Shown here piece by piece: positions 24,022 through 49,653 of a stretch of 64,000 nt of DNA. Below the pieces are notes generated by a model that did no database searches, was not told the DNA's origin, and saw nothing but the letters and a program-made list of their open reading frames with translations. A program made the position numbers and the translations under genes. The stretch's first letter is position 1; every line of letters starts with the position of its first letter. Origin of the DNA: Verrucomicrobiaceae bacterium (GTDB lineage: Bacteria > Verrucomicrobiota > Verrucomicrobiia > Verrucomicrobiales > V1-33); contig JAIXPK010000220.1 in NCBI GenBank assembly GCA_027486335.1, positions 5,620 through 69,619 of the forward strand. The letters run 5' to 3'.

Positions 24022-24040
24022 GGTGGTGCGACTGCTAGGG

Positions 24041-24490
24041 TTACTTTTCGGCCAGTTTCCATGCATTGAGTGATCTGACGACTTTGAGGGGGGGCAGGGA
24101 TTTGTCTTTGAATGTGGCGGTGACGGTACCGGAGTTGGCATCGCCGGTGAAGGTGAAAGTGAAATCGACTGGCGACCATGAACCGAAGGCCTTGTCGAAG
24201 CCGAGTTTGTATTGATCGAGCCACTTTGAGGCGGTGGTGGCGGAGAGGCCCATTTTGCGGGTGGTTGGCTGGTCCCAGCACTGGAGGAACAGGGAGGTGT
24301 TGGAGTCTTTCACGGACTGGAGGAGGGCGGCGACGGGGATGGCCTGTTCGATGGTTTCCGGATGTTTGGCGGGGGTGGTTTTGGATGGTTCGGCGGGTGG
24401 ATTGGACGATTGAGGTGCGGCTGTGGCGGGGATGGCGCTGGCGAGCGCGATGAGGAGGATGAGGGAGGCGGAGGAGTGATGGGATTTCAT
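24041..24490 (-). CDS. Small secreted protein, unknown function (first gene of the kinase-sigma operon)
   Basis: Signal peptide MKSHHSSASLILLIALASAIPATAAP. 149 aa. Its stop lies 19 nt upstream of the kinase ATG. Confidence 0.6.
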   Translation of the reverse strand: MKSHHSSASLILLIALASAIPATAAPQSSNPPAEPSKTTPAKHPETIEQAIPVAALLQSVKDSNTSLFLQCWDQPTTRKMGLSATTASKWLDQYKLGFDKAFGSWSPVDFTFTFTGDANSGTVTATFKDKSLPPLKVVRSLNAWKLAEK

Positions 24491-28805: not shown

Positions 28806-29426
28806 TCAGCCGCGTTCTTCGAGGAGGTTGATGCTGGCGCGGAGCATTTTGCGGACGCGGAAGTTGGTGACGTGGACGGAGACTCTGGAGACCTTGAGGA
28901 CGCGGGCGACGTCTGCTGGTGGGTGGCCCTGGATGGTGGTGAGTTCGAAGATCTGGAACTGGAGTGGGGGGCAGGTACGGCGGACGCGGTCGAGGGCGGC
29001 GGCGACGATGTGCTCCTGCCATTCTGCGTCCCATGTGGCGTCGAGCTGGGCCATGGCTGGGTCTTCGAGGTTGGCGACGGCGGCGGCGTCGAGGGCGACG
29101 ACTTTGTCAGGTGGTTGTTCGCGGTAGCGGCGGCGGAGGATGTCGGCGACGCGGCGGCGGGTGATGGTTTTGAGCCATGCTTTGAAGCGGCCTTTGGAGC
29201 GATCGTATTTGAAGTCGGCCATTTCTTTGGCGACGCAGAGGATGGTGTCCTGGACGGCGTCCTGAGCTTCCTGGTCGTCGAGGCCTGATTTGCGGGCGAC
29301 GGCGTAGATGAGTTTCCAGTAGGTGTTGAAGAATTCCTGCCATGAGTCCTGATTATTCCAGTCTCGGAGCCGGCTGAGGAGACTGTGCCGGGTGGGTTGG
29401 AGGCTGGGAGGGTCGAGGGTGGTCAT
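28806..29426 (-). CDS. ECF-type sigma-70 family factor (orphan paralogue of 45330-46040)
   Basis: DSWQEFFNTYWKLIYAVARKSGL, FKAWLKTITRRRVADILRRR, QFQIFELTTIQG, and the region 4 HTH ADVARVLKVSRVSVHVTNFRVRKML. Confidence 0.85.
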   Translation of the reverse strand: MTTLDPPSLQPTRHSLLSRLRDWNNQDSWQEFFNTYWKLIYAVARKSGLDDQEAQDAVQDTILCVAKEMADFKYDRSKGRFKAWLKTITRRRVADILRRRYREQPPDKVVALDAAAVANLEDPAMAQLDATWDAEWQEHIVAAALDRVRRTCPPLQFQIFELTTIQGHPPADVARVLKVSRVSVHVTNFRVRKMLRASINLLEERG

Positions 29427-31502: not shown

Positions 31503-34500
31503 TTATTCCATGATGACGCGGTAGAAGCGTTTGGATGCGGCGGCGTGCTGCTGGGTGAAGGCGCCGTGGCCTTGATCGAGCGGGAGCGGCGAGAGACGGG
31601 TGGCGACGTTCTGCCATGATTTGAGGTCGGAGGAGAATTGGAGCGAGTAGAAGCGACCGGGGAGGGCATCCCATGTGACGGAGGTGGCGGTGAGTTGGGG
31701 GGAAGGGACGAGCGAGATGATGCGGACGCGGCCGTGGCTGATGATCTGGATGGCGTTGATGGCGGCGCTGGTGCCGCCGACGCCGGCGCGGCCGACGATG
31801 CGGAGACGGCCGCCGGAGTGGTTTTTGAAGATGGCGACATTGCCGGCGGCACCGCTGGACTGGACGGCCACGAAGCTGCCGGATTCGCCGGCGACGTTCC
31901 AGTCGGTGATGTCGCGCAGACCAGTTAGGGATTCGGATTTCGTCAGGGACGTGACGGTGAAGTCCGAGCGGTTGTCCGGGGCGGGGCCGTCGAAGTAGAC
32001 GCAGACATCGTAGGACTGCCACGGGATGTTATAGAGGTCGGCGACGCAGCGTGTGTCGGTCGAGCAGATCATGGAACCGTGCATGAGGCGGGAGCTGCCG
32101 TCGGTTGGGAGCGGTTGGCCGGGCTGAGCGAGGGCGAGGTCGGCGGCACCGGAGTTCTGGATATTGAAGACGACCTCGTTGTAGCCCTTGGTGTAGGGGT
32201 AGCCGCCGGTGAGGTCGGGGCTGACATTGAGCCATTGCTGCTGGAGGACGATGCCGGCGTAGGTTAGGGAGGGGATTTCGAGGTCAGAGGAAACGACGCC
32301 GTCGGGGACGCGGCCTGAGAAATTGAGAGCGAAGCTGCCTGGGCCGGAGGTGGCGGGGGTGCTGGCAGCGGAGGCGGGATTGGAGCCGTTGTCGATTTCT
32401 GCGGCGTCGAGCCAGCCGTCGTTGTCGGAGTCGACGAGGGCCGGGGAGGCGACGAGGATGGAGTGACGCCATGGTTCGGCGATGAGAAGAGAACCGTTAG
32501 GCGCGACGGCGAGGGACTGGGGCGAACGGAGCGGGGTCTCGAGATGGCCGCCGGAGTAGTGGTCGTCGTAGACCCGTTGGCGTGAGAGATTGGGCTGACC
32601 GAGAACTCGGTGGGGGAGGATGCGGTCGGTGGAGCTGACGTCTTCGGCGCGGTACTGGAGGACGCGGTGGTAGCCGCTGTCGGCGACGAAGATGGAACCG
32701 TCCGGGCCGGAGGAGACGGCTTCCGGATAGTAGATGCCGCAGACATTGTGAGGGATGAGATTGGCGGATGCAGGGGAGGCCTGGCCGAGGGAGTTGGAGG
32801 CGGAGGCGTTGGCGGAAGGGAGGGAAGCGGCGTTGTCGAAGCGCTGGACCCGGTGATTGCGGGAGTCGGCGACCCAGAGACGGCCGGCGGGGTCGAGGGC
32901 GATGCTGACGGGTTCGGTGAACTGGTTAGCGGCGGTGCCCCAGTTGAAGCCGTTGAGACTGGTTTGGCCGACGACGAGGTCGGCGGATCGATCGGGGGAG
33001 GAGGCGGTGGCGCTGTTGAATTTAAGGACGCGGTGATTGAGCTGGTCGGCGACCCAGAGGTGGTTGGCGGCGTCGATGGCGACGGCGGCTGGTGTATCGA
33101 GGCCCGTGCTGCTGATGCTGGGGAATTCCGAGGAGAAGTCAGGCTGACCGAAGTGGCATCCGGCGTCGGCATCCGTGTTAGGGTCGGTACGGGTTGCGGC
33201 GTTGGCGAAGCGGAGGATGCGGTGGTGGCCGGTGTCGGCGATGAAGAGGTGGCCTGTGGGTGAGAAGGCGAGGCCGCGCGGGAGTTTCAGATTGCTGCGG
33301 GTGGCGGGGCCGGTGGCGTCGGTGCGGAGGTCGGGTTGACCGATGACCCATTCTGCGGCGATGCCCTCGCGGAGTGCCTGCCAGTTAGGGAACCGGAGGA
33401 CGCGGTGGTGTTTGCGGTCGGTGACGAAGACCTTGCCGGAGATCGGGTCGATGGCGATGGCGGCGGGGTCTTCGAGGTGTTGTTCGGAGACGAAGTTGTC
33501 GGACTGTTCGGAGAGACGGGAGATGATGGCGGGGGAACCGGTGAAGGGGGTGGCGGGAGAGGATTCGACGCGGAGGATGCGGCGGCTGTTGAGGTCGTTG
33601 ACGAAGAAGCGGCCGTCGGTGTCGGCGAGGATGCTGGCGGGCAGGATGTTCTGGAGACTCGAGGTGAAGTCGGATTGCCAGAAGACGGAGTCGGCGGGAG
33701 CGCCGTTGGAGAGGAGGGCGGAGGCGCGCCAGCGGAGGACTCGGTAGTTGTTGTAGTCGGCGAGGAGGAGATTTCCTGCGGGGTCGAAGGAGAGTGCACC
33801 GCTGTTGCCGATGAGCTGGGCGGTGAGGCCGCCGCCTTTGGTGAGGAGGTCTGGTGCGCCGAGGACGCCGCTGGCAGGGGCGTTGTCAGGGAGAGTGCGG
33901 GCGTTGTCGAAACGGAGGATGCGGGCGTTGTGTTCGTCCATGATCCAGAGCGTGCTGCCGTGAGCGGCGATGGTGCGGGCGAAGAATTTGTTGGGGGAAG
34001 CGAGGGTCGAGCCGTCGTCGGTGACGAGGTCCGGCTGACCGAGGACGCCGTCGGCGGACGGCATGTTGCCGCGGAATCTAGCGCTATCGAAGCGGATGAC
34101 GCGCGAGCCTTGAGAGAGCCAGAGCGATCCGGCGGTGTCGACGGCGAGCCCGAAGGCCCAGCCGGTGGTGGCGGTTAGTGGTGGGTAGGGAGAGTGGTAG
34201 TCGAGCGTGCCCTTGGCGAAGTCCGGGTATCCGAGGACCTGGGCGGCGGGGGTGCCGCTAGCGGCGTTGGCGGCGTCGTTGAAGCGAACGGCGCGGCGCG
34301 TTTTGAATTCAGCGACCCAGAGTGAGCCGTGGTCCCATGCGAGGGCGGCGGGGCCGCGGAGTGTGGTGGAGACGATGGAGTCCTGGCGGAGGGTTTCGGA
34401 GACGGAGCGCTGACCGAAGACGGCTTCAGGCTCGCCGTTTTCGGCAAGTTTCTGAGCGGAGCTGTAGCGGAGGACGCGGTCGCCGTTCCAGTCAGCGACG

Positions 34501-34709
34501 AAGAGTTTGCCGGTGGCGGGGTCGACGGCCATGGCGCTGGGGGAGACGAAGCGCGGGTTGTCGGTGTGGCCGAATCGGGCGGAGAAGACCTGACCGTCCT
34601 GAAATTCCGAGATGGCGGAGAGCTGGGTGCAGGTGGCGAGGAAGCAGAGGACGAGCGGCAGCCGGAGCGGGCTGGCGGGATGGATGACGGACGGGCGCGG
34701 AGGAGTCAT
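31503..34709 (-). CDS. Secreted NHL-repeat beta-propeller protein (1,068 aa)
   Basis: Signal peptide. More than 15 repeats of the type ..D..NHRVLRF.. (NHRVLKF, NHRVQRF, YHRVLQY, NYRVLRW). C-terminal FYSLQFSSDLKSW...KRFYRV module. Confidence 0.8.
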   Translation of the reverse strand: MTPPRPSVIHPASPLRLPLVLCFLATCTQLSAISEFQDGQVFSARFGHTDNPRFVSPSAMAVDPATGKLFVADWNGDRVLRYSSAQKLAENGEPEAVFGQRSVSETLRQDSIVSTTLRGPAALAWDHGSLWVAEFKTRRAVRFNDAANAASGTPAAQVLGYPDFAKGTLDYHSPYPPLTATTGWAFGLAVDTAGSLWLSQGSRVIRFDSARFRGNMPSADGVLGQPDLVTDDGSTLASPNKFFARTIAAHGSTLWIMDEHNARILRFDNARTLPDNAPASGVLGAPDLLTKGGGLTAQLIGNSGALSFDPAGNLLLADYNNYRVLRWRASALLSNGAPADSVFWQSDFTSSLQNILPASILADTDGRFFVNDLNSRRILRVESSPATPFTGSPAIISRLSEQSDNFVSEQHLEDPAAIAIDPISGKVFVTDRKHHRVLRFPNWQALREGIAAEWVIGQPDLRTDATGPATRSNLKLPRGLAFSPTGHLFIADTGHHRILRFANAATRTDPNTDADAGCHFGQPDFSSEFPSISSTGLDTPAAVAIDAANHLWVADQLNHRVLKFNSATASSPDRSADLVVGQTSLNGFNWGTAANQFTEPVSIALDPAGRLWVADSRNHRVQRFDNAASLPSANASASNSLGQASPASANLIPHNVCGIYYPEAVSSGPDGSIFVADSGYHRVLQYRAEDVSSTDRILPHRVLGQPNLSRQRVYDDHYSGGHLETPLRSPQSLAVAPNGSLLIAEPWRHSILVASPALVDSDNDGWLDAAEIDNGSNPASAASTPATSGPGSFALNFSGRVPDGVVSSDLEIPSLTYAGIVLQQQWLNVSPDLTGGYPYTKGYNEVVFNIQNSGAADLALAQPGQPLPTDGSSRLMHGSMICSTDTRCVADLYNIPWQSYDVCVYFDGPAPDNRSDFTVTSLTKSESLTGLRDITDWNVAGESGSFVAVQSSGAAGNVAIFKNHSGGRLRIVGRAGVGGTSAAINAIQIISHGRVRIISLVPSPQLTATSVTWDALPGRFYSLQFSSDLKSWQNVATRLSPLPLDQGHGAFTQQHAAASKRFYRVIME

Positions 34710-34915
34710 AGGTCCCTCTGTTCGGCGGCGGGGAGCGGCCGATTACGGGAACCTTGAGGAATTTTTTTAGGGGGGAGGGGTGAGGCGGCCTCCGGTGGGA
34801 GGTCAGGTTCTGAAATAGTTTCGGGGAGGAGGCGAAGCCGCTGGGGCGCAGGCTGCTGCGTGCCATCCTTGCCGATCCATGTGAGGTCAAGTCTGGTTTC
34901 CCCGGAACGAAGGCG

Positions 34916-35659
34916 TTAGTAGTTCTTGAAAGCAGAGACACAAGCCGACCAGACGGCGGGATGGTTTTGGCGGAGGGAGGACATGGGGGATTCGTTGACT
35001 CCAGCTCCTCGGAAGCACCAGCCGAGGATGCCGTGTTCGTCGGCGTCCTTGAGATCACTGATGAAAGCGGCGGCGTGCCCTGCGGGATCATCGAGGATGG
35101 TCTGGATGATTTTGCTGATGCGCCGGAAGCTGCGTCGATAGCCGAGGGTGACGGCGTCGCGTTTTGCAAACTGGAACACGCGGGCCGTTTCGGAACCTTT
35201 GATCGAGGTGCTTCCTTTCGAATCCATGCGGGCGAAGAGGATTCCGGTGGCGGGGCTGAAATCCAGGAAATCCCACGGATCATCCACGGTGGGGTCGAGG
35301 AGTGCGGGGTTTCCGTTTACTAACGGGAACTGGCTGCCTTTGCAGTCACGGCCGCAGCCCGTGCAGCAAAGCAGCAAATTGGGCCATCGGAACATCTGCT
35401 CTGGATAGACAGACTTAGGCCAGAAGTGCTCAATGTCCGTGCCAGCGGAGTCCGAGCAATACATGCAACGCTGTCTGCCGCCTGCCATTTGCTGAAGCTG
35501 ACGCTTCACCATCGCGAGCTTATCGGTCTGGCGAGCGTTCTTCCAAGTCTTCTCGATATTGAGCGTCCCGGCTGCCATGTCGGCATCGGCCCGCTTCTGC
35601 CTTTCCTCCATGTAGCGGACAACGACAGGAGGCAGGTCATGTCTGGGGACGCGGCGCAT
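34916..35659 (-). CDS. ptuB: HNH endonuclease, Septu PtuB-like
   Basis: CMYCSDSAGTDIEHFWPKSVYPEQMFRWPNLLLCCTGCGRDCKG is an HNH/zinc-finger core. 247 aa. It starts 3 nt after the stop of the ATPase gene. The DNA is visibly lower in GC than its neighbours. Confidence 0.75.
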   Translation of the reverse strand: MRRVPRHDLPPVVVRYMEERQKRADADMAAGTLNIEKTWKNARQTDKLAMVKRQLQQMAGGRQRCMYCSDSAGTDIEHFWPKSVYPEQMFRWPNLLLCCTGCGRDCKGSQFPLVNGNPALLDPTVDDPWDFLDFSPATGILFARMDSKGSTSIKGSETARVFQFAKRDAVTLGYRRSFRRISKIIQTILDDPAGHAAAFISDLKDADEHGILGWCFRGAGVNESPMSSLRQNHPAVWSACVSAFKNY

Positions 35660-35662
35660 CGA

Positions 35663-36964
35663 TTACAGGTCTTCGTCAACGTTAACGAACAGTTCGAGCT
35701 GTTTGAACCGTTTCTGTTCTTCTGCGGTCAGTTTGCCTGTGGATCGTTTCTTCCCCTCGATGAGTGCATACTCAATGCGGGCCTCTACGGCGACCGGCGA
35801 GAGAGTGCTCTGAAGCCCAAACGCCGGGCTGCGCAGAATGGCGTCCGGGCGTGAGGCGATGATGGAATCGCGCACATCATCGGTGAGACGGCGTGGCTCT
35901 TGCCCGCTGCCCGGCTCGGGCAGGACGAATAAACCGCCAGGGTCCGCGGCCTGGCAAATGATGGGGCTGTGCGTGGTGACGAGGAATTGGATCTTCGGGA
36001 AATGGCGTTTCAGCCAAAAACCGATGTCACGCTGCCACTCGGGATGAAGATGGGCGTCGATTTCGTCGATCAGGATCACTCCCGAGTGAGCGATCTCGAT
36101 ATTGCCGTCGAGCGTTGTCGTGAGCAGGTTTTCGTGACCGTAAGCATTGATCAGATGGCGAAGGATATCGGCCACCAGCGCCAGTGCGGAGCGATATCCG
36201 TCACTCATGGAGGCCCATGAGATTTCCACCCCATTACGATCCTTCAGCCAAAGGCCATCCGAATCTACTCGGTCTACTGTGATCTGGTTGGGCAGGAGGT
36301 CCTGCCGCAGCAGGCTGAGGAGGATGGCAAGTTGGCTGACTTCGGCTGCCTTTTTCTCAAGTTTCTTATGGTCCAGCTCCCTCAACCAGCGGTCCACTTC
36401 GGCGAGAGATGCGGCCTCCTCGAACATGGTGACAAATCGTTCTGTGCTAGGAGAAGACATGAGTCGCTGTGCTACGGGCGACTCACCGAAAACTCGCCGG
36501 AATGGTCCATAGCCGCAGCAAAACCATCCGCTGGATCCGTTGGCCCAAATAGTGCGTTCAGGTGTTTGGTAGGATTTTTGCCGTCCTTCTGGCAACTCGA
36601 CCGTGAGTGAGGTTTCCTTTCCGCCGTTTTCAAAAACCAGGTGGGCAGGGAATTTTTCGGACGGGCTTTTGCCGACGCCGCTGAGTTTGTCATCCGGCTT
36701 CACACGAACGATTTCGAGTTCTACATGACCTTTCTTTTGGGGGGCGTCATGCCGGACCCACTTGTTGAAGCTTGGTTGCAGCGAACGGGCTGTATCGCGG
36801 CCGGTAAGCCCGATGGCGATGGATTTCAAAAGCGTGCTTTTGCCTGAACCATTGTCACCCGTGAAGACCGTCCAGCCTGCATAACTTTTGTCCGGGCGTT
36901 GAAGATCAAAATCCAGGCTTTTGAAGCCGCGAATGTTGGTGAGCTTGATCTTATGAAGATACAT
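35663..36964 (-). CDS. ptuA: ABC/SMC-like AAA ATPase, Septu PtuA-like
   Basis: Start trimmed to MYLHKIKLTNIRGFKSLDF. Walker A GDNGSGKST; signature-like SMSDGYRS; Walker B VILIDEIDAHLHP; H-loop TTHSP. 433 aa. Confidence 0.75.
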   Translation of the reverse strand: MYLHKIKLTNIRGFKSLDFDLQRPDKSYAGWTVFTGDNGSGKSTLLKSIAIGLTGRDTARSLQPSFNKWVRHDAPQKKGHVELEIVRVKPDDKLSGVGKSPSEKFPAHLVFENGGKETSLTVELPEGRQKSYQTPERTIWANGSSGWFCCGYGPFRRVFGESPVAQRLMSSPSTERFVTMFEEAASLAEVDRWLRELDHKKLEKKAAEVSQLAILLSLLRQDLLPNQITVDRVDSDGLWLKDRNGVEISWASMSDGYRSALALVADILRHLINAYGHENLLTTTLDGNIEIAHSGVILIDEIDAHLHPEWQRDIGFWLKRHFPKIQFLVTTHSPIICQAADPGGLFVLPEPGSGQEPRRLTDDVRDSIIASRPDAILRSPAFGLQSTLSPVAVEARIEYALIEGKKRSTGKLTAEEQKRFKQLELFVNVDEDL

Positions 36965-37304
36965 GGGTGACGAATGGTGAACGGGAATCAGACCTGACTC
37001 CAGCGGAGAGTGATGTGTGGCTGGGTGGGGCCGGATTGCTGCAGGTTCCAATCAATGGTCCCAAAGCAGCCTTGGAACTGCTGATTGATGACGGCGTTGG
37101 CGACGAAGAGCGGGGGGGCTGGGCGTTTTGGTGGTGTCCGAGGCACGGCGTTTCGGCGGTTGGGGAGCGACGGAATTGGCCTGATGGTCTGTGATTGACA
37201 TGGGGTGGGGGAACTGGGCCGTGGGTGCGAGGAGATTGGGGAGAGGGTTGGGTGTTTTGAGCGGTTGTGCAAAGGGTGAATGGGGCTGGGGTGGGAGGTT
37301 GGGG

Positions 37305-40280
37305 TCAGGGGGAGGGCCAGTCGAGGTGTAGGGTGGCGAGGTGGGAGCGGAGGAGGGGGAGGTCCCAGATGCGGGCGAGGTGATTGGTTTCGGTGACGAG
37401 GAGGCGAGTGCTGTCGGGGCTGAAGGCGAGGGTGCCGATGACGGTGCCGAGGTGGTGTTCGACGCGTGCGATGGTGGTGCCGTCTGCTGGGTTGAGGAGG
37501 AGGAAGGAGGTGGAGGAGTCCTGGGCGGCGATGAGCGAGCCGTCCGGGGAGCAGGCGGCGACCATGCCGCGTGCTTTGTGGGAGGAGGACCATGAGGTTG
37601 CGGAGGGGACGAGGGGTTCGCAGCGGATGCCTGAGGAGGAGCTGATGATGAGGCTGCGGGAATCGGCGGAGAAGGCGACGATGGAAGTGCCTGCGCCTGT
37701 CCAGTTAGCGGCGGGGCGGAGGGGATCCGGGGCGTTGAGGTCGAAGACGAGGAGTCGGGTGCCTCGGGTGGCGAGCCAGCGGCCGTCGGGGCTGAGGAAG
37801 AGCATGCGGAATTGTTCCGGAGCTGGCATGACAGGGGCGAAGTTGCCGAGGTTGCGGCGGAGGTGGATGGTGCCTTTGGTCATGGCGGCGACGGTGAGGC
37901 CGTCGGCGCTGGCGGCGACGCTCCATGTGTCGCCGGGGATGAGGAGGGAAGGGGGATCGAACTGGAGGGAGCCGTCCGGGTTGCGATGGACGTTGTGCTG
38001 GAAGAGCCCCTCGATGGTGGCGGTGTAGAGCGGGCCGGATTCTGTGGCCATGGCTGTGTGGCGGACGGAGGCGGAGGGGAGGAGGTGTGTGGGGAGGAGA
38101 GAGATGGCGTCATTGATATGGACCCCGGAGTTGCCGGTACTGAGGAGGAGACGGCCGTCGGCGGCGAAAGTGGCGATGCTGGAGAGATCGGATAGGGGCA
38201 GGCGCCATGGGCGGCAGACATCGCGGCCGGCCCATTCAGCTTCGATGAGGTCGTAGGTGGTGCCGTCGGAGTAGGCGATGCGGTGATTGTTGGTGAAGCG
38301 GATGCTGCCGGTGACGAACGCTGGGTGGAGGCCGAGGAGCGTGCGGTCGGCGACGCCGTAGAGCTGGAGCGTTCCGTCCCAGCCGCTAGTGAAGAGGACC
38401 TCGTCGGCGGGGTCGAATTCGAGGGTGGTGATGATACCGTGGCGGCCGAGGGAGTCTGGCTGGGGAGGATTGGGGACGAGGTTGTGGACCGAGACGGTGC
38501 CGTTGGCGCCGACGGCGGCGGTGCGGGCGTCGTGGGAGAGGCCGAAGGAGCACGAGGAGTCGAACGGGGGCATGGCGAGTTCGACGGAATGGGAGAGGAG
38601 ATTGACGAGGTAGGCTGGGCCGTTGTGGCGGGAGCCGACGAGGATGCGGTCGGAGGCGACGGCGGAGAGGATATCGCGCGGGGAGGGGAGGGGGATGGAG
38701 ACAGGGGCGCTGCCGTCGAGTGGAAAGATGCGAATGGCTTTGTCGACGAGCATGATGAGTTCCGGGCGGGCCTGGTTGAAGCGGACCATGTCGAGGGCTT
38801 CGGCGGCGACGGGTGCGGGGATGTGCAGCTGGACTGAGCCGGAGTCGGTTTCCCAGACGATGCAGTCGCCGCGGCGCTGCGGGCTCATGCTGACGAGGAA
38901 GCGGCCGTCCGGTGAGAAATCGAGCCATTCGCTGATGGGGGAAGGGCCCTTGATGGTTAGATCGGTGCCGGGGCCGTGGGTGGGGCGGATGCGGATGGTG
39001 CCGTCGGGCTGGACGCTGGCGTAGCGGTCGATGCTAGGGTTGATGGCCTGGCGGAGGGGAGAGCCGTCCGGGGATTTGGAGGCGGGCCAGCGGGAGACTT
39101 CGCGGAAGTCCGGGATGGCGAGGGCGGTGATGGCCTGACTGCGGAGGGCGACGTCGCCTGGGTGGATGAGAGCGGCATCGCGGAGGGCGTCGAGGGCGCG
39201 GAAGCGACGGCCGGTTTGAGAGGAGAGGCATTCGGCGCGGGCGAGGGCGGCGGACTGGCCGAAGAGACGCTCGCGGGCTTCCTGTTCTGCGGTTTCGGTG
39301 CGGAGGAGGAGGGTTTCGGTGTGCTGGCGAGCGGAGCGTTCGGCATTGGCGCGCCAGACGGCGATGGTGCCGATGGCGGCGGCGAGGACGGCGGCGAGGA
39401 CGGCGGCGAGGCCGCCGCGTCTGGCGAAGCGGAGACGGTCGGCGGAGCGGTGGGCGTCGCGGACTGAGCGACCGCTTTGCATGGTGGCGAGGTCGGCGAG
39501 CATTTCTGCGCCGGACTGGTAGCGGTTGGTGGCGTCCGGGGCGCAGGCTTTCATGGCGACGGCGTTGAGGTCCATGATGCCGGAGAGGGCGGCGAGGCCG
39601 TCGGGGCCGGAGGCTGGAAGGGAGGGGAAGCGCATGCGGTCCATGCCGGTGGCGGCTTCGTAGAGGGATTTGCCGAGACTGAAGAGGTCGGCTTGTGGGC
39701 TGTTAGGGCCTTCCGGGGGAATGTAGCCTTCGGTGCCGACGAAGCTGCGGCTTTCGCTCATTTCTGCGACGAGGCCGATGTCAGCGAGTTTGGCGACGCC
39801 GTCGACGAGGATGATATTGGAGGGTTTGACGTCGCGGTGGATGAGACCGAGACGGTGCATGTGGCCGAGGGTGGCGGCGAGAGTTAGGAAGAAGTTGACG
39901 CAGCTGGAGGTTTCGATGCGGCCGAGGGAGTCGATTTCCGAGCGGAGCGTGCGTGGGCGGTAGGAGTCGGGAGAGCCGGAGGCGTTGTCGGCGAGTTCCA
40001 TGACGTAGTAGAAGAAGCCTGCGTCGTCGTTGCGGCCGACCTGGAGGATGTCGACGAGGCCTTCGTGGCTGCGGGAGACAGGTTCGAAGCGTTTGATGCC
40101 GCTGAATTCGCGTTCGTAGGGACGGACGCTGTCGAATTTGTCGCGCCAGACGACCTTGACGGCGCGCATGGTGCCGAGGGTGCTGCGGGCGCGCCAGACC
40201 TGGCCGTAGGAGCCTTCGCCGATGATGGCGAGCATTTCGTGGTCGGGGACCGGGGGTGGAGGGGCGGCGGGCGGTTTCAA
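37305..40280 (-). CDS. Ser/Thr protein kinase with TM segment and C-terminal WD40-like beta-propeller region
   Basis: IGEGSYGQVWRA, HRDVKPSNIIL, DIGLVA. TM segment GLAAVLAAVLAAAIGTIAVW. About 650 aa of propeller-like repeats (FSPDGRFL, LSPDGRWLAT, FSPDSTRLLVT). TTG start at 40280; an ATG follows 15 codons in. Confidence 0.85.
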   Translation of the reverse strand: MKPPAAPPPPVPDHEMLAIIGEGSYGQVWRARSTLGTMRAVKVVWRDKFDSVRPYEREFSGIKRFEPVSRSHEGLVDILQVGRNDDAGFFYYVMELADNASGSPDSYRPRTLRSEIDSLGRIETSSCVNFFLTLAATLGHMHRLGLIHRDVKPSNIILVDGVAKLADIGLVAEMSESRSFVGTEGYIPPEGPNSPQADLFSLGKSLYEAATGMDRMRFPSLPASGPDGLAALSGIMDLNAVAMKACAPDATNRYQSGAEMLADLATMQSGRSVRDAHRSADRLRFARRGGLAAVLAAVLAAAIGTIAVWRANAERSARQHTETLLLRTETAEQEARERLFGQSAALARAECLSSQTGRRFRALDALRDAALIHPGDVALRSQAITALAIPDFREVSRWPASKSPDGSPLRQAINPSIDRYASVQPDGTIRIRPTHGPGTDLTIKGPSPISEWLDFSPDGRFLVSMSPQRRGDCIVWETDSGSVQLHIPAPVAAEALDMVRFNQARPELIMLVDKAIRIFPLDGSAPVSIPLPSPRDILSAVASDRILVGSRHNGPAYLVNLLSHSVELAMPPFDSSCSFGLSHDARTAAVGANGTVSVHNLVPNPPQPDSLGRHGIITTLEFDPADEVLFTSGWDGTLQLYGVADRTLLGLHPAFVTGSIRFTNNHRIAYSDGTTYDLIEAEWAGRDVCRPWRLPLSDLSSIATFAADGRLLLSTGNSGVHINDAISLLPTHLLPSASVRHTAMATESGPLYTATIEGLFQHNVHRNPDGSLQFDPPSLLIPGDTWSVAASADGLTVAAMTKGTIHLRRNLGNFAPVMPAPEQFRMLFLSPDGRWLATRGTRLLVFDLNAPDPLRPAANWTGAGTSIVAFSADSRSLIISSSSGIRCEPLVPSATSWSSSHKARGMVAACSPDGSLIAAQDSSTSFLLLNPADGTTIARVEHHLGTVIGTLAFSPDSTRLLVTETNHLARIWDLPLLRSHLATLHLDWPSP

Positions 40281-40430: not shown

Positions 40431-40491
40431 TGGGGGGTGAATGCGGTAAAGAGAGCGCTTGAGTGGGGTGAGGAGGGGTGGTCAGATTTCA

Positions 40492-41406
40492 ATGATGAAG
40501 ACCATGATTCGCCGAGCTGTTTTTCTGATGGTTGCTGTGAGCGCTGTGATGCCTGCGGTGCGGGCAGCGGAGCCGAAGCGGATTGTGTTTATTGCGGGGC
40601 GGCCGAGTCATCCGCCGGGGATGCATGAATTCCGGGCGGGGTCGCTGCTGCTGGAGAAGTGTCTGAAGGGAGTGCCGGGGGTGGTGTTTGACCGGCATGA
40701 CCAGGGATGGGTGAAGGATGAAGCGGTGCTGGAGAAGGCGGATGCGGTGATTATTTATGCGGATGGTGGTGGGGGGCATCCGGCGCTGCAGGGGGATCAT
40801 CTGGAGAAGATGAAAGCGTTAGCGGCGAAGGGGTGCGGGATTGGGTTCATGCATTACGGCGTGGAGGTGCCTGCGGAGCGGGGAGGGCCGGCGTTCAAGG
40901 ATTTTGTGGGTGGGTATTACGAGCATCAGTTTTCGTGCAATCCGATCTGGGAGCCCGAGTTCAAGGCGTTCCCGGAGCATCCGGTGACGCGTGGGGTGCA
41001 GCCGTTTCAGATCAAGGATGAGTGGTATTTCAACATGCGGTTTGCGGGGGATTTCGGAGCGGACGGGGCTGGGGAGAAGGACGGGGTGAAGTTCACGCCG
41101 TTGCTGGTGGCGAAGCCGACGGACAAGGTTCGGAAGGGGCCGTATGTGTATCCTGCGGGGCCGTATCCACACATTCAGGCGGCGAGTGGGCGGAGCGAGG
41201 CGATGATGTGGGCGGTGGAGCGGAAGGATGGCGGGCGTGGGTTCGGGTTCACGGGCGGGCATTTTCACCTGAACTGGGGGAATGCGGATTTCCGGCGGGT
41301 GATTCTGAATGCGCTGGTGTGGGTGGCGAAGGCGGAGGTGCCTGCGGGGGGAGTGGATTCGCGGGTGGCGGAGGAGGATCTGAAGGCGAATCTGGACAAG
41401 AAGTGA
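40492..41406 (+). CDS. Secreted ThuA-like domain protein
   Basis: Signal peptide MMKTMIRRAVFLMVAVSAVMPAVRA. KRIVFIAGRPSHPPGMHEF and ADAVIIYADGGGGHP resemble ThuA-type (class-I amidotransferase-like fold) proteins. The assignment is by recollection. Confidence 0.55.
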   Translation: MMKTMIRRAVFLMVAVSAVMPAVRAAEPKRIVFIAGRPSHPPGMHEFRAGSLLLEKCLKGVPGVVFDRHDQGWVKDEAVLEKADAVIIYADGGGGHPALQGDHLEKMKALAAKGCGIGFMHYGVEVPAERGGPAFKDFVGGYYEHQFSCNPIWEPEFKAFPEHPVTRGVQPFQIKDEWYFNMRFAGDFGADGAGEKDGVKFTPLLVAKPTDKVRKGPYVYPAGPYPHIQAASGRSEAMMWAVERKDGGRGFGFTGGHFHLNWGNADFRRVILNALVWVAKAEVPAGGVDSRVAEEDLKANLDKK

Positions 41407-42655: not shown

Positions 42656-45349
42656 TCAGCGTGGCGGTTCCGGGGAGACTGGCGGGTTGGGAGAAGGGAA
42701 CGCGGGGCTGGTTGGGGAAGGAGCGGGATTGGTGGACGGGCTGTCTTTGGAGGGAGAGGCGACGGGTGCGAGGACGGCGCGGAAGCCGGTCCAGCTGTCG
42801 GGTTCGGCCTCTTGTGGGACGGCGCGGCGGAACTGGGTATTGAGTTCGAGGATGGCGGTGGCTGGGGTGGCCCATGAGGCACCGCGGGTGACAGCGAAGG
42901 CAGCGTTGGCGGGGTTCTTGCCGCCGTAGGCATCGGCGACGAATTCGGAGACATTGCCTGCCATGTCGTGGAGTTTGAATTCGGCGATGCGAAACGAGCC
43001 GACTGGGGCGGTGAAGGGGGTGCCGTCGTCGTAGGCGAGTTGTTCGACGGCTTTGACCTGTTCCGGGGCGATGGCGTTGAGGGCGCCGGAGCGGGCGGCG
43101 GTGAGGTCGCCGAGATTGCCGCCGGGTTTGGGGTTAGCGGCGTCAGGGAGAGGCGGGAAGAGGTAGTGGGGGAGCCATGGGTAGACCCCGGTGATGCGGA
43201 GGTGGCGTTCGGACGGGGAAGTGAGGAGAGGGTCGATGTCGGGAGCGCCGGCGGCGGCGGACCATTCGGCGTCGGTGGGGAGACGGTATTCGCGGCGGTC
43301 GTCGAGGAGCCCTTCGGTGCGTTCCTTCTGGGTGAGCCAGCGGCAGAAGTTCTGGGCTTCGGTGCGGGTGATGCGGGTGACAGGGTGGGTGCCGTCTGGT
43401 GGGGCGGGGACTGGAGGGGAGGGTGGGCGGATGGCGGTGGCGGAGGCGGCGGCGAAGGCGGCGAAGTCCTGGACGCGGGTTTCCCACTGACTGAAGAAGA
43501 GCTGGTCGACGGGTTGGAAGACCATGCCGAGACTGTTCTGCCATTCTTTGCCGGTGACCGGGCGGCGGCTTTGTTTGAGTTGGGCTTTGAGGAGGAGCGT
43601 GCCGCCGCTGGGGACATCGCCTTCGACGATGGCGTCTTCGAAGCCGTCGAAGGTGACGGTGAATTTGACGGGGCCGGTGCGGCGGCCGTACATGGTGAAG
43701 GGCGTGAGTTTGAGGAGACGGCCGTTTTCGAAGACTCGGGCGGAGGAAGGGACGCTTTCGAAGACGACCTTGCCGGTGCGTTCGGCGACGCAGCGGAAGC
43801 AGATGGTGGCGCCTGCTTTGAGTTCCGGGGAGGCTGGGTTGGGCGATTTTTTTGGGGTGTAGGGTTCCGGGCGGTAGCACCAGTCGTCGGGGAGGAAGCC
43901 GGAGAGCCGTTCGGATTCGGTGAGGCGGTCGCAGTAGCGGAGGGCTTCTTCCGGGGGGACACTGATCATGTAGATGGTGCCCTGGTCGCCGAAGTTTTCG
44001 TCGATGACGGTTCCTGACATGATCTGGAGGACATCGCGGAATTGGTCATAGCTGACGGGCCAGCGGGAGACATGGGAGAGCCCGCGTGGGTCGAAGAGCA
44101 TGCGGATGCTATTGGTCCATGGCTGGCCGGGGACGGGTGGGTCGTAGAAGGAGAGCTTGACTGGAGGAGGTGCGACGGTGCCGCCGGGGATGATCTGGTC
44201 GATGCGAACGGAGGTTTCGCGGTGTCTGGCGAGGCGGAGCGTGAAGTCAGCGGCTCCGACGGGGATTCCGTTGATGGTGGCGGGGGTTTTGCCGAGAGAG
44301 CGGCCCTGGAAGAAGATGTCTGCACCTTTGGGGGTGCTTTCGAAGTAGACGGCACCGGAGACGGGAGGGAGGGGTGTATTGAGATCGTGGAATCGGCCTG
44401 GGGGCCATGGGAGATCGCCCTTGTGACGCCAGACGAGGAGGGAGAAGGCGGCGATGGCGCTGTAGATGGTGAGAGCGGCGGCGCGGCGGAGCCATGCGAA
44501 GCGATTGCGGCGGACCTTGCGAGCGGCGCGGAGGGCGTCGGCCATGGGGCGGGCGCCGGGGAAGCGTTTTTTGGGATTGGGGGCGCAGGCTTTGCAGACG
44601 ACGTCGTTGAGGGCACGCCACATGGGGCGATTGACGGCGTTGCCGAGGTCGTCCGGGAGTTCTGGGAACTGGAGCCGGTCGTTGCCGGTGGACATTTCGT
44701 AGAGGACCATGCCGAGACTGTAGAGGTCTGCGGAGGCGGACCCCGGGCCTTCCGGAGGGACGAAGCCTTCGGTGCCGACATAGGTGTGCTGGCCTTCGGC
44801 GGCGACGAGGCCGATGTCGGCGAGTTTGGCCTTACCGTTGACGAAGATGATGTTGGAGGGCTTGATGTCGCGGTGGGTGAGCCCGTGTTCGTGGAGGTGG
44901 ACGAGGGCGTCGGCGAGAGTGATGCCGTGGTCGATGCACTCTTCGATGGAGAGACGGCGGTGGGCGGTGCGGTCGGTGCCCATGGTGCGGGCCTCGTACT
45001 CTGCGGGGTCGATGCGGCTTCCGCGGTCGCGGTCGTCGCCTAGTTCCATGACGTAGTAGTAGAAGCCTTCGTCGTCGTTTCTGCCGACATGGAGGATGTG
45101 GACGAGGCCCTGGTGGTCGCGGGAGATGGGTTCGAATTTGCGGATGCCGTCGAATTCGCGTTCGAAGGTACGGTCGAGTTCGAAGTCTTCGCGGCGGACG
45201 ACTTTGACGGCGCGGAGTGCGCCGGTGACGCTTCTGGCGAGCCAGACCTCGCCATAGCTGCCCCTGCCGATGCAGCGCAGGACCTCGTGGTCGGGGATGC
45301 GCGGGGGATCGGTACGGATGGCGACGAGCTTAGATGAGCTGCTTTTCAA
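42656..45349 (-). CDS. Ser/Thr protein kinase fused to two PEGA domains and an FGE-sulfatase (SUMF1-like) domain
   Basis: IGRGSYGEVWLA, HRDIKPSNIIF, DIGLVA; TM segment; PEGA units (VYFESTPKGADIFFQGRSLGKTP, VVFESVPSSARVFENGRLL). The C-terminal FGE-like region includes WQNSLGMVF, HDMAGNVSEF and RGASWA. TTG start at 45349, overlapping the sigma gene by 20 nt. Confidence 0.85.
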   Translation of the reverse strand: MKSSSSKLVAIRTDPPRIPDHEVLRCIGRGSYGEVWLARSVTGALRAVKVVRREDFELDRTFEREFDGIRKFEPISRDHQGLVHILHVGRNDDEGFYYYVMELGDDRDRGSRIDPAEYEARTMGTDRTAHRRLSIEECIDHGITLADALVHLHEHGLTHRDIKPSNIIFVNGKAKLADIGLVAAEGQHTYVGTEGFVPPEGPGSASADLYSLGMVLYEMSTGNDRLQFPELPDDLGNAVNRPMWRALNDVVCKACAPNPKKRFPGARPMADALRAARKVRRNRFAWLRRAAALTIYSAIAAFSLLVWRHKGDLPWPPGRFHDLNTPLPPVSGAVYFESTPKGADIFFQGRSLGKTPATINGIPVGAADFTLRLARHRETSVRIDQIIPGGTVAPPPVKLSFYDPPVPGQPWTNSIRMLFDPRGLSHVSRWPVSYDQFRDVLQIMSGTVIDENFGDQGTIYMISVPPEEALRYCDRLTESERLSGFLPDDWCYRPEPYTPKKSPNPASPELKAGATICFRCVAERTGKVVFESVPSSARVFENGRLLKLTPFTMYGRRTGPVKFTVTFDGFEDAIVEGDVPSGGTLLLKAQLKQSRRPVTGKEWQNSLGMVFQPVDQLFFSQWETRVQDFAAFAAASATAIRPPSPPVPAPPDGTHPVTRITRTEAQNFCRWLTQKERTEGLLDDRREYRLPTDAEWSAAAGAPDIDPLLTSPSERHLRITGVYPWLPHYLFPPLPDAANPKPGGNLGDLTAARSGALNAIAPEQVKAVEQLAYDDGTPFTAPVGSFRIAEFKLHDMAGNVSEFVADAYGGKNPANAAFAVTRGASWATPATAILELNTQFRRAVPQEAEPDSWTGFRAVLAPVASPSKDSPSTNPAPSPTSPAFPSPNPPVSPEPPR

Positions 45350-46040
45350 GTTCCGCGATCTCTTTCTTGATGAGGCCCCCGACGCGGTGTTTGGCGAGGT
45401 AGACCTGAGCCATGCTGACGCCGAGTTCGGTCATGACTTTTTTGACGGACCAGCCCTTGATGACGTAGGCGTCGAAGATCTGGAACTGGCGGGGGGAGAC
45501 TCGTTGTTTGACGGTGGCGACGGCGCGGTCGGCGAGATTCTGTTTCCACTCGAGGTCCCAGATGCCGTCGAGTTTCTGGGCTTTTGGGTCGGCGAAGCGG
45601 TCGAGGGTGGACGTTTTGCGGTCGTCCTCGTCCGGGAATTTCTGCATGGCGGTGTCCTTGGCGCGTTTGCGGAATTGGTCGCCGATGCGCCAGCGGGTCA
45701 TGTTCATGAGCCAGACCTTGAAGGAACCGGCTTTGGGGTCGTAGCGGTGTTCGCGGCTTTGTTTGGCGATGGCGAGGATGGTTTCCTGGACGACGTCGAG
45801 GGCTTCTTCGGGGCGGAGACCGCTTTTGAGGCCGACGCCGTAGATGAGGCGCCAGTAGGTGCGGTAGAACTCGTCCCATGAGCGTTGGTCCTCCCAGTTG
45901 CCGAGTCGTTCGATGAGACTCTTGCGAGTCTTCTCGTAGTGGGAGCGCACGACTTCTTCCGCTGGTTCAACCACCTGTTCAGGGGGGGCTGGATCGGCGG
46001 CGGGAGGGGGATCGTCCGCGATGTCTTTCCGACGGGCCAT
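45330..46040 (-). CDS. ECF-type sigma-70 family factor (kinase-coupled)
   Basis: RSWDEFYRTYWRLIYGVGLKSGL, FKVWLMNMTRWRIGDQFRKR, QFQIFDAYVIKG, and the region 4 HTH KKVMTELGVSMAQVYLAKHRV. Confidence 0.85.
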   Translation of the reverse strand: MARRKDIADDPPPAADPAPPEQVVEPAEEVVRSHYEKTRKSLIERLGNWEDQRSWDEFYRTYWRLIYGVGLKSGLRPEEALDVVQETILAIAKQSREHRYDPKAGSFKVWLMNMTRWRIGDQFRKRAKDTAMQKFPDEDDRKTSTLDRFADPKAQKLDGIWDLEWKQNLADRAVATVKQRVSPRQFQIFDAYVIKGWSVKKVMTELGVSMAQVYLAKHRVGGLIKKEIAELEKQLI

Positions 46041-47751: not shown

Positions 47752-47803
47752 GAGTGAGCGCGGAAAACGGACAAGCAGTGAGGACCGCAGAAGCAGGAAC
47801 CAG

Positions 47804-49600
47804 ATGAAAAAGCAGAATACAGTACACAAAAAGGCCGAGTTAGGTTCTCGGGCGATTCTGGCCGCGTTATTTCTGATGGCATCGTTTGCCGACCGGGCCT
47901 CCGCGCAGTGGCAAACGGTATCCTATGCGCTCAAAGGCGGCTGGAACTCGATTTATCTGCATGGGGATGCCAGTTATGCGCCCATTGAAACACTATTTCC
48001 TAACGCCGGTGCGACGGCAGTCATTCAGGAGGTCTGGCGCTGGAATCCCAACCCGGATCAGGTGCAGTTCACGGAATCGCCGTTGATTCCGGCGACTGGC
48101 ACTCCGGAGTGGAGCGTATGGATCCGTGGTGGCGTTGCAAACACGCTGAGCACCCTCAACGGGCAGACGGCCTATCTGGTGAAGTGCTCCGGGGCCGGGA
48201 CAACATCGCATCCGGCGGTGACTATCAAGCAGTCGCCGAGACTGCCGGGGAACACGTGGGTGCGCAATGGAGCGAATTTTCTTGGATTCCCGGCGTTCTG
48301 GAATGGAAACAGCTATCCATTGTTGTCGAGTTACTTCGCGACCTTTCCGGCAGCCATTGCGGCGAATGCGAGGGTCTTCAGGTACGTGGGAGGGGACCTT
48401 GGAGCGGGCAATCCACTGCAGATTTTTTCCCCTGCTACCGAGCGACTGGATGCGACCCAAGCCTACTGGTTTTCGGCCGAGGTGGTGGGCAACTTTTCCT
48501 CGCCGCTGTCCATCAGCCTGAGTACGGCTGACGGCATGGATTTCGGCCGGAATGGGAGCATCATCAGCGCTCGATTGATGAACCGGAGCGCGGCCGCGAT
48601 GACGGTTACGATATCGCCGGTGGCATCCAGTTCCGCGCCGGCCGGTCAGGACGATCTCGGTGGCAGCACCAACAATGCCGGCTTGCCCACGGGCAACGTG
48701 CCGGTCACCCGCCGGTCGTTCGATGCTGGCACTGGACAGTGGATTGAAACGCTGATCAGCAGCAGCTATACGCAGGTAATCGGCCCTGGTGGTTCGGTGG
48801 AGTTGTTCTTTGGGATTGATCGTACTGCCATGACCGCGGCCAGTCCGGGCGCGCTCTATGCGTCACTGCTCCGCATGACGGACAATACGCTATTTGACAT
48901 CCTCGTGCCTGTCAGAGCGCGCAAGACCTCTCTTTCCGGCCTCTGGGTGGGTGATGCACTTGTCAAGGCGGTCGAGAGCAAGCCTGCTGCGGACGCAGTG
49001 ACGGCCACGGCCCGTCCCTATCCGCTGCGTTACATACTTCATGTGGCTGATGACGGCACGGCCCGGGTGCTTTCCCAAGTTTACCTTGGACGGCTGAGCA
49101 CGCCTGGAAACAACTTCGGTGTCTGCACGAAGGAAGCCGGACTCCTTGGGACTGAGAAGGCCAAAGCTGCCAGGATCTGCGCCGTGCATCTGCCGCTGGA
49201 CCGTGTGCTGGACGGCAGTGCGGGCAGTGGCAGTGTGGCGGTGCCGGGAACACTCAGCCGCAGCATCAGCCTGCCGTTTGATGATCCGACGAATCCATTT
49301 GTTCACAAGTACCACCCGGATCACGACAACAAAGACCCGCGGGGTCAGCCACTTTCTGCTGGTAAGGAAAGCTACAGCGTCACTCGCGAGGTAACCTTTA
49401 CCTTCACGAGCACCCCACCGCCGGGCAGCACCGTTACGTCCGGTTGGGGCAGCACGGTGATTGGCGGCAACTACGCGGAGGTGATCCACGGGCTGCACAA
49501 GGACAGCGCGGGCGTCGGTGCCGGGAACGGCCTGAACCTCAGGGGCACGTTCGAGCTGCACCGCATCTCCGAACTGGGGAGTATTTCGATCAATCCCTGA
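47804..49600 (+). CDS. Secreted 598-aa protein, no recognisable family
   Basis: Signal peptide ...AALFLMASFADRASAQ. An uninterrupted ORF with protein-like composition, starting 52 nt after the previous gene. Confidence 0.7.
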   Translation: MKKQNTVHKKAELGSRAILAALFLMASFADRASAQWQTVSYALKGGWNSIYLHGDASYAPIETLFPNAGATAVIQEVWRWNPNPDQVQFTESPLIPATGTPEWSVWIRGGVANTLSTLNGQTAYLVKCSGAGTTSHPAVTIKQSPRLPGNTWVRNGANFLGFPAFWNGNSYPLLSSYFATFPAAIAANARVFRYVGGDLGAGNPLQIFSPATERLDATQAYWFSAEVVGNFSSPLSISLSTADGMDFGRNGSIISARLMNRSAAAMTVTISPVASSSAPAGQDDLGGSTNNAGLPTGNVPVTRRSFDAGTGQWIETLISSSYTQVIGPGGSVELFFGIDRTAMTAASPGALYASLLRMTDNTLFDILVPVRARKTSLSGLWVGDALVKAVESKPAADAVTATARPYPLRYILHVADDGTARVLSQVYLGRLSTPGNNFGVCTKEAGLLGTEKAKAARICAVHLPLDRVLDGSAGSGSVAVPGTLSRSISLPFDDPTNPFVHKYHPDHDNKDPRGQPLSAGKESYSVTREVTFTFTSTPPPGSTVTSGWGSTVIGGNYAEVIHGLHKDSAGVGAGNGLNLRGTFELHRISELGSISINP

Positions 49601-49653
49601 CTTAATTGCCGAAGAAGCACTTTCAACAACCGGAATAGCCAACCCACCAAGCC

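Follow-up and report, generated by a model that had tools for sequence, protein, structure and literature searches.

In this study we describe a stand-alone (type I) Septu operon, ptuA followed by ptuB, in a 64,000-nucleotide (nt) stretch of a Verrucomicrobiaceae genome assembly (GCA_027486335.1, contig JAIXPK010000220.1, positions 5,620 to 69,619), which as a whole is called the window below. The operon lies in a 2.5-kb foreign insert between a gene for a protein kinase with WD40 repeats and a gene for an NHL-repeat protein; we put the probability of this reading at about 0.88, and the locus can carry a type I Septu annotation with high confidence. The kinase/NHL junction is a three-state defence hotspot, occupied in different relatives by Septu, by HEC-01 or by nothing, although over the NHL gene together with its leader of 80 nt the genomes with the three allelic states are 92–97% identical. 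It is a small natural example of defence-gene turnover, with three alleles at one core-gene junction. The Septu cassette still bears broken ends of two genes, for a helicase and a methylase, which would once have enclosed PtuAB. Septu is a known system, and current ideas on Septu and on defence hotspots stand; the value of the locus is confirmatory and illustrative, with both ideas extended to the Verrucomicrobiaceae, and what it adds is a minimal three-state hotspot together with the footprints of a former embedded position.

A first-pass annotation of the window had proposed that two adjacent genes encode a PtuA/PtuB pair of the Septu kind. PADLOC, NCBIfam and Pfam profiles agree with this, as do sequence and fold matches to solved PtuA and PtuB structures, and both proteins were assigned to Septu by PADLOC. 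The PADLOC model PDLC00269 (PtuA) matched residues 1–427 of the 433-residue ATPase at profile positions 1–429 of 446 (E=3.9e-159); weaker PADLOC matches were to AriA. Pfam matches above cutoff were AAA_21 (78.7 bits), AAA_15 (56.7 bits), AAA_23 and SMC_N. All motifs quoted by the annotation for the ATPase and the HNH protein were found in the translations, those of PtuA being GDNGSGKST (residues 36–44), MSDGYRS (253–259), VILIDEIDAHLHP (296–308) and TTHSP (330–334). Its key residues are K42 of Walker A, D300 and E301 of Walker B (VILIDEID) and H332 of the H-loop. Among 44 homologues G36, G41, D300, E301 and H332 are invariant, and K42 is kept in at least 90%. In the Protein Data Bank (PDB), PtuA matched by sequence the PtuA chains of the retrons Ec83 and Ec78 and of the E. 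coli Septu entry 8EE4, the last only over residues 248–350, while three further weak matches were to AriA of the PARIS system, with E values of 1.5e-4 and above. An AlphaFold2 (AF2) model built with the 44 homologues reached a mean local confidence (pLDDT) of 75 and a predicted template modelling score (pTM) of 0.77. When it was compared with the PDB by Foldseek, the best 50 matches were all PtuA chains, including 8EEA, 8EE4 and 8SUX.

The annotation had also taken a long helical C-terminal tail on the ATPase as the mark of a variant. The tail is real, with helices at residues 390–409 and 414–427 of the model, but it is canonical. Since it is covered by the PtuA profile, and the closest homologues are nearly all equally long (431–438 amino acids, aa, in nearly all of the best 120 homologue clusters, with three exceptions of 448–453 aa), the tail is a family trait. 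PtuA's C-terminal extension binds PtuB, and the bundle that it forms with the PtuB C-terminal domain is conserved in Septu and in retron PtuAB alike (PMC12819146).

The partner protein was assigned to PtuB by the PADLOC model PDLC00317 (E=4.2e-38) and to the retron-system-type HNH family TIGR02646 of NCBIfam (54.7 bits against a cutoff of 52.15); a Pfam search of PtuB returned no match. Its motifs are CMYC (residues 65–68), DIEHFWPKS (75–83), NLLLCC (at 94) and CTGCGRDCKG (99–108); within them C65, C68, H78, N94, C99 and C102 do not vary across 43 homologues. The spacing of 16 residues between H78 and N94 equals that between H75 and N91 of Septu EcB88, in which mutants of these two residues lose defence (PMC13096335), and H78 aligns with the histidine that is replaced by alanine in PDB entry 22bu. 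Sequence matches of PtuB in the PDB were PtuB chains. The AF2 model, built with 43 homologues, had a pLDDT of 92 and a pTM of 0.87; all nine of its significant fold matches in the PDB (9/9) were PtuB chains, including 8EEA_G. A helical C-terminal domain occupies residues 153–244 of the model and falls within the family profile.

Set beside the type I Septu of E. coli (PDB 8EE4, 8EE7, 8EEA and 8SUX; EcB88), the window pair has the same operon layout, ptuA then ptuB with no reverse transcriptase (RT) or noncoding RNA (ncRNA), and the same architecture, in which the ABC ATPase has a C-terminal helical extension and the HNH nuclease ends in a helical domain. It also has the same Walker A/B and H-N-H residues as EcB88, whose mutants at these residues lose defence (PMC13096335). 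In contrast to the E. coli systems, the pair belongs to another subfamily (PDLC00269/PDLC00317) in a Verrucomicrobiaceae host and is, by structural alignment, only 16–20% (PtuA) and 14% (PtuB) identical to the E. coli Septu structures. HEC-01, PARIS AriAB, Gabija and OLD likewise combine an ABC-type ATPase of the AAA_15/AAA_21 kind with a small nuclease, but in those systems the partner is a TOPRIM, DUF4276 or DUF4435 protein, whereas here it is an HNH protein of TIGR02646. No TOPRIM, DUF4276 or DUF4435 profile matched either protein in PADLOC, Pfam or NCBIfam.

The pair and its surroundings are laid out as follows (positions are those of the window; all genes and relics are on the minus strand).

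35663–36964, minus strand: ptuA, 433 aa, ABC-type ATPase of Septu.
34916–35659, minus strand: ptuB, 247 aa, HNH nuclease of the TIGR02646 family.
34781–37294: variable insert of 2514 nt that fills the intergenic slot between the kinase and NHL genes; homology with empty-site and HEC-01 relatives breaks at its ends.
36988–37110, minus strand: relic of an SNF2 (DrmD/HmaA-like) helicase gene, its last 40 codons and stop, 23 nt upstream of the ptuA ATG.
34866–34910, minus strand: relic of a gene for a type III-like N6/N4 DNA methylase, its first ~15 codons lacking the start codon, immediately downstream of ptuB.
37111–37294, minus strand: C-rich leader of 184 nt between the kinase stop and the helicase relic, part of the insert.
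37305–40280, minus strand: upstream core gene for a Ser/Thr protein kinase with a WD40 beta-propeller (Pfam Pkinase, E=4.5e-25, and WD40-type repeats).
31503–34709, minus strand: downstream core gene for a 1068-aa NHL-repeat protein (Pfam NHL/TEN_NHL matches).

Open reading frame (ORF) calls confirmed the layout described in the first-pass annotation, namely two ORFs of 433 and 247 aa, 3 nt apart, between noncoding flanks of 206 nt (34710–34915) and 340 nt (36965–37304). The longest ptuA ORF (35663–37051, minus strand) would encode 462 aa from a TTG 29 codons upstream of the ATG at 36964. Because M1 is invariant and Y2 nearly invariant in the 44 homologues, the ATG at 36964 is the correct start. 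The gap of 3 nt separates the ptuA stop TAA (35663–35665) from the ptuB ATG (35659). The same order of genes is kept at all other loci that we saw, where a PtuA of 433 aa is always followed by a PtuB of 247–248 aa; the gap is 2–3 nt in the related loci L005, L012, L013 and L017, and in L020 ptuB is directly downstream. Among the ORFs of the 2.5-kb insert, ptuA and ptuB are the only genes.

The insert is foreign in composition. The annotation had called the pair more AT-rich than its neighbours, and the GC contents bear this out: 0.555 for ptuA and 0.589 for ptuB, against 0.662 for the NHL gene and 0.676 for the kinase gene. Third codon positions bring out the difference more sharply, the frequency of C there (C3) being 0.385 in ptuA and 0.480 in ptuB against 0.732 in the NHL gene, 0.762 in the kinase gene and 0.68–0.76 in minus-strand genes of the host. 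The GC skew of the plus strand is ~0.02–0.10 inside the insert and 0.35–0.50 outside it; over 34781–37050 as a whole it is 0.10, against 0.37 outside. Third-position C and GC skew show the foreign origin much more strongly than does the difference in GC. Foreign composition and presence or absence among relatives both speak for the horizontal insertion that the annotation had suggested. When substitutions on the window branch were polarised, no trend toward C, as amelioration would produce, was seen, with an outgroup too distant (dS 1.4) for the result to be reliable.

Next, we compared the kinase/NHL slot among relatives, using orthologues of the kinase/NHL flanks from 11 other contigs (12 contigs with the window). 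A genome scan gave one locus, L007, and a scan of metagenome contigs with the NHL protein gave one irrelevant fragment of 59%. Four metagenome contigs (L001–L004) carry an identical Septu insert. In L007, from a Verrucomicrobiaceae metagenome-assembled genome (JAIXVE010000127) whose flanks are 96–97% identical to those of the window, and in L018, the exact same junction is occupied by a 1.9-kb HEC-01 cassette (L007:7603-9413, L018:2-1263), encoding the ABC ATPase HEC-01A (E=1.8e-127) and the TOPRIM-like DUF4276 protein HEC-01B (E=5.5e-71). This cassette is likewise compositionally foreign, with a C3 of 0.42–0.43. In a sister lineage, in which the NHL protein is 91–92% identical by amino acids, the site is empty in L009, L019, L021 and L022: 95–96 nt lie between the kinase stop and the NHL start, and ~13 nt replace the insert. 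A further contig of the sister lineage, L020, has a Septu insert with the same two junctions as the window. Along the window, homology with the empty-site and HEC-01 loci breaks off at 37295/37282 and is taken up again at 34780/34774; the breaks with the empty site, at 37295 and 34780, define the insert as 34781–37294.

The flanking genes are close relatives throughout. Kinase identity is 90–97% by amino acids in L007, L019 and L021, and NHL orthologues of 91–97% amino acid identity carry each of the three alleles upstream. In the NHL gene, L020 (Septu) and L019 (empty) are 97.4% identical, and the window (Septu) and L007 (HEC-01) are 95.8% identical; because the members of both pairs are nearly identical in this gene yet differ in allele, the junction is polymorphic within both lineages. 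Close relatives carry the whole pair or none of it, so that its presence or absence as a unit, which the annotation had named as a check, was borne out. The findings it had listed as fatal to its proposal, that is, profiles of a RecF/OLD-like kind, universal presence at the locus or a host-like composition, did not turn up. HEC-01 did not protect E. coli in published assays (bioRxiv 10.1101/2024.01.29.577857); that it stands in for Septu in other alleles of the slot speaks circumstantially for a defence role.

The slot resembles the core defence hotspots (cDHS) of Pseudomonas aeruginosa (PMC10250203) in being a fixed position between core genes with varied or no defence cargo in close relatives, and in that no integrase, transposase or tRNA gene adjoins it. 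It differs from them in that it is tiny, holding one two-gene cassette of 2.0–2.5 kb and not a multi-system island; moreover, three states only were seen, in 12 contigs, and the host is of another phylum. Domains found in the ORFs around it are kinase, NHL, FG-GAP, ECF-sigma, Met-zincin and ThuA, and no integrase or transposase domain was found in a scan of the neighbouring ORFs. The sole tRNA-like gene of the window is a transfer-messenger RNA (tmRNA) gene 23 kb from the Septu pair; it lies at 11454–11811 on the plus strand, and its tag peptide is ANSNELALAA.

Candidate traces of a mobile element at the ends of the insert were examined and rejected. A possible target-site duplication or att-like repeat of 33 nt (73% identity, 34778–34810 against 37274–37306) was matched or beaten by local alignment in 124 of 500 shuffled flanks. 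Duplication of the 3' end of the kinase gene was sought by semi-global alignment, and the score was reached in 321 of 1000 shuffles for the window and in 145 of 1000 for L020. As such similarity is common in shuffled C-rich DNA, the repeat at the insert ends was dismissed as chance. A phage vehicle was likewise rejected, the best relative in IMG/VR being only 35% identical.

The closest homologues of the pair beyond the kinase/NHL junction, which lie in unrelated contexts, point to where the cassette came from. In L005 (1022–11953) the order of genes is a DrmD/HmaA-like SNF2 helicase, PtuA, PtuB, a type III methylase, PDC-M56A, PDC-M56B and a type III restriction subunit, and its PtuA is 91% identical by amino acids to that of the window. 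The L005 helicase matched DrmD (E=1.3e-202) and HmaA (E=1.5e-57), the methylase matched MTase_III (E=3e-211), and the restriction subunit was recognised with E=4.2e-200. The order helicase–PtuA–PtuB–methylase is shared by L006. In L012, whose PtuA is 89% identical, the methylase gene comes directly after the pair and is followed by PDDEXK_3 and RhuM/PDC-S05 proteins. The L005 cluster thus has two different two-gene modules nested in one system resembling helicase/type III restriction-modification (R-M).

DNA similarity between the window and these donor-type loci runs from 37049/37013 to 34866, that is, ~50–85 nt past ptuA and 50 nt past ptuB. Upstream, positions 36988–37110 translate to LFVANAVINQQFQGCFGTIDWNLQQSGPTQPHITLRWSQV followed by a stop, and this peptide aligns to the last 40 residues of the L005 helicase (tblastn, 45% identity over 40 aa, E=4.4e-8, stop in register); the DNA also aligned to L005, L012 and L017. 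Downstream, positions 34866–34910 align with the first methylase codons (MSKKTKLELTWIGKE) of L005, L012 and L017, in which the gene starts ATG TCC AAA AAA ACC AAA CTC GAA CTC ACC TGG ATC GGC AAG GAG; in the window the ATG is lost. Since the overhangs beyond ptuAB are fragments of the helicase and methylase genes, the donor would have had PtuAB nested between both, and we infer from these alignments that the cassette came from such a donor, as in the closest homologues. Intact nesting is absent at the window locus, where only relics of ~120 nt and 45 nt are left, and is present in L005, L006 and L012.

Septu embedded between the genes of the Hma (helicase-methylase-ATPase) system was described by Payne et al. 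(bioRxiv 10.1101/2024.01.29.577857), and HEC-01 was defined in the same work as an Hma-embedded candidate. The closest homologues L005, L006 and L012 (89–91% aa) are nested in the same manner, and the window keeps relics of this arrangement. The window differs in that the parent system is lost, and the parent in L005 has its best scores as DrmD with type III Mod/Res, not as canonical Hma. In L007, a candidate helicase relic upstream of HEC-01 ("...F-S-V-R-W-T-x-x-stop"; tblastn E=0.077 in a tiny search space) was rejected as unsupported: a profile of five real helicase C-termini did not recover it at E<=10 among 32,945 six-frame fragments.

The C-rich leader at 37111–37294 is found only in the other Septu allele, L020, at ~79% identity, and is absent from the empty-site and HEC-01 alleles. 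No other copy of it exists in the window or the loci, it has no recognisable homology, and it is open in all three frames. Its plus-strand GC skew is 0.59 (over 37081–37294), and its composition is host-like, unlike the rest of the insert.

To ask whether the genes have been kept since they reached this junction, the window was compared with L020, with the following identities.

ptuA: 92.8% by nucleotides, 97.5% by amino acids.
ptuB: 94.1% by nucleotides, 93.5% by amino acids.
NHL gene: 91.8% by nucleotides, 90.9% by amino acids.
Noncoding parts of the insert: 71–85% by nucleotides.

Nei-Gojobori ratios of nonsynonymous to synonymous rates (dN/dS) between the window and L020 were 0.041 for ptuA and 0.15 for ptuB; the NHL gene gave 0.137 in another comparison, the window against L007. 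Both genes have been under purifying selection while at the kinase/NHL locus. Therefore both have been kept functional, with no helicase or methylase next to them, over roughly the time since the two host lineages split, and this upkeep argues for autonomous action of the PtuAB clade.

Several points weigh against the reading of the locus as a stand-alone Septu operon. By structural alignment, PtuA is 16–22% and PtuB 14–25% identical to the studied E. coli proteins, and because identity is so low, substrate and trigger may differ from those in E. coli. The TM-scores of the fold matches are moderate (0.45–0.59), and the PtuA model is disordered at residues 157–182. A search of the flanks for sigma-70-type promoters and intrinsic terminators found neither; all four terminator-like matches were inside ORFs, and their count was not above that in shuffles. 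Expression is therefore presumptive, and transcription of ptuAB would probably come by read-through from the kinase gene, as the genes here all have the same orientation, or from an unrecognised promoter. Weaker PADLOC matches to type IV restriction models are taken up below. Finally, as a helicase/methylase system encloses the closest homologues, the pair might have needed partners that are now lost.

This last point, the position of the 89–91% identical homologues, with a DrmD/HmaA-like helicase on one side and a type III methylase on the other, the relics of both genes around the window copy and the lack of promoter-like sites in its flanks would all be expected if the pair were a decaying leftover of a larger system, Hma-like or type III R-M-like. 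It would have worked only alongside that system, for example as a back-up nuclease under its guard, and by itself would now have lost its function or its regulation. We consider this the best of the rival explanations, and nevertheless improbable. Both ORFs are intact with their catalytic residues conserved, and the dN/dS values of 0.04 and 0.15 were obtained across ~6–7% nucleotide divergence at the locus, while the surrounding relic DNA drifted to 71–85%. Homologues of 83% identity (L013–L016) occur elsewhere with no called helicase or methylase adjoining, only 0.7% of Septu systems were reported to lie within Hma systems (Payne et al., bioRxiv 10.1101/2024.01.29.577857), and stand-alone Septu defends unaided in E. 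coli (PMC13096335).

Rather less probable again is a modification-dependent, type IV-like restriction enzyme, in which the ATPase and the HNH protein would strike modified phage DNA directly and not by abortive infection. PADLOC mREase_IV models matched both proteins (PDLC03660, E=4.9e-56; PDLC03661, E=6.2e-23), related copies are associated with R-M genes, and stand-alone Septu nicks plasmid DNA in vitro (as related in PMC12640716). However, the PtuA and PtuB models match far more strongly and over the full length, whereas the mREase_IV ATPase model spans residues 145–409 only; a Pfam search found no domain that reads DNA modification, and the in vivo target of the Septu that was studied is tRNA-Tyr (PMC13096335).

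The first-pass annotation had noted that the pair also fits the effectors of some retrons. The homology held: the best PDB matches by sequence and fold are PtuA/PtuB of the retrons Ec83 and Ec78, and the NCBIfam retron-Ec78 models matched both proteins. The retron type did not, and the pair is very unlikely to be the effector part of a type I-A retron (also called type II Septu; Retron-Eco7/Ec78, Retron-Eco4/Ec83) whose RT and ncRNA were overlooked. The NCBIfam scores are far under the equivalog cutoffs (130 against 500 bits for PtuA, NF041760; 61 against 150 bits for PtuB, NF041761). The insert holds two genes only, its neighbours being kinase, NHL, FG-GAP, sigma factor and ThuA genes, and an Rfam search of 34000–38000 gave no family match at E<=1, hence no retron ncRNA or multicopy single-stranded DNA (msDNA) locus, nor any other known RNA. 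Retron-type PtuA, of 542–552 aa, acquired an N-terminal extension of ~60 aa that binds RT and ncRNA (PMC12819146); this is missing from the 433-aa PtuA of the window, whose residue 5 aligns with residue 65 of Ec83 PtuA. Without RT, ncRNA and N-terminal extension, the pair is stand-alone and not of the retron type. A housekeeping DNA-repair pair of the RecF/Rad50/OLD type, suggested by weak P-loop similarity to RecF, Rad50, RecN and DndD (E 1e-6 to 1e-3, residues 1–60 only), can be set aside, as the similarity is confined to the Walker A region and far below cutoffs, while the pair is missing from very close relatives, is foreign in composition and lies elsewhere inside defence gene clusters.

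Under the Septu reading, an anti-phage role of the pair is suggested by analogy, and a mechanism may be taken over from the studied Septu and retron PtuAB of E. coli, to which the window pair is 14–25% identical. PtuA would oligomerise and hold PtuB through a bundle to which PtuA contributes its C-terminal extension and PtuB its C-terminal domain; the regions that would form this interface, PtuA 390–427 and PtuB 153–244, are helical in the single-chain AF2 models. Binding of ATP would silence the nuclease, and a phage cue would lift the inhibition. The HNH nuclease would then cut host or phage nucleic acid, which in the studied systems is tRNA-Tyr at its variable loop and/or nicked DNA, and phage replication would halt at the expense of host growth. 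For E. coli Septu, a 6:2 PtuA:PtuB complex, inhibition of the nuclease by ATP and nicking of plasmids were reported (Li et al. 2024, as cited in PMC12640716). Septu EcB88 cleaves tRNA-Tyr, for which the Walker A/B residues of PtuA and H75 and N91 of PtuB are required (PMC13096335).

The embedded position of the homologues also allows a tentative account of how the slot was filled, one that we regard as possible though doubtful. Modules embedded in helicase-methylase immune systems may be exchangeable cassettes. Recombination through the ends of the conserved genes for the helicase and the methylase would move them, and they could be released from the parent system to seed a small chromosomal defence hotspot. 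If so, the relics in the window would be the footprints of such a release, and the Septu, HEC-01 and empty alleles could reflect continuing replacement without a dedicated recombinase. One possibility is that the PtuAB clade was originally a back-up nuclease guarded by an R-M-like host system. A nuclease guarded in this way would resemble PrrC inside EcoprrI.

The strand asymmetry of the host DNA was also characterised. Minus-strand genes of the host have the high C3 given above (0.68–0.76) with a third-position G (G3) of ~0.1, and a plus-strand ThuA-like gene verified by Pfam (40459–41406) is their mirror image, with a G3 of 0.63 and a C3 of 0.11; the asymmetry therefore follows the DNA strand and not the orientation of genes. 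The skew of 0.35–0.50 on the plus strand extends over tens of kb, through positions 3000–47000 and 61000–64000 of the window. A GC skew of this size is far above expectation for a bacterial chromosome. A search of the literature on extreme strand asymmetry found nothing specific. At 1000–3000 the skew falls to ~0 (−0.04 to 0.12), unlike the remaining host DNA; the ORFs 3–1124 and 1359–2417 had no Pfam match.

A second atypical block was seen at 47800–60200, where the GC skew is 0.07 and C3 is about equal to G3. On its plus strand are ORFs with 598, 699 and 2773 aa. A Peptidase_S74 domain (endosialidase-chaperone, tail-fibre-type) was recognised in the 699-aa protein, and the 2773-aa ORF (51838–60159) had no Pfam match. 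The block may represent a further acquired island or else a cluster that is phage-derived or encodes surface proteins. The window further contains three Ser/Thr protein-kinase genes (22054–24141, 37305–40280 and 42656–45349), one with WD40 and one with PEGA and FGE-sulfatase domains. Interleaved with the kinase genes and with genes for large secreted-repeat proteins (NHL, FG-GAP, Met-zincin) are two genes for sigma factors of the extracytoplasmic function (ECF) type, at 28806–29426 and 45330–46040.

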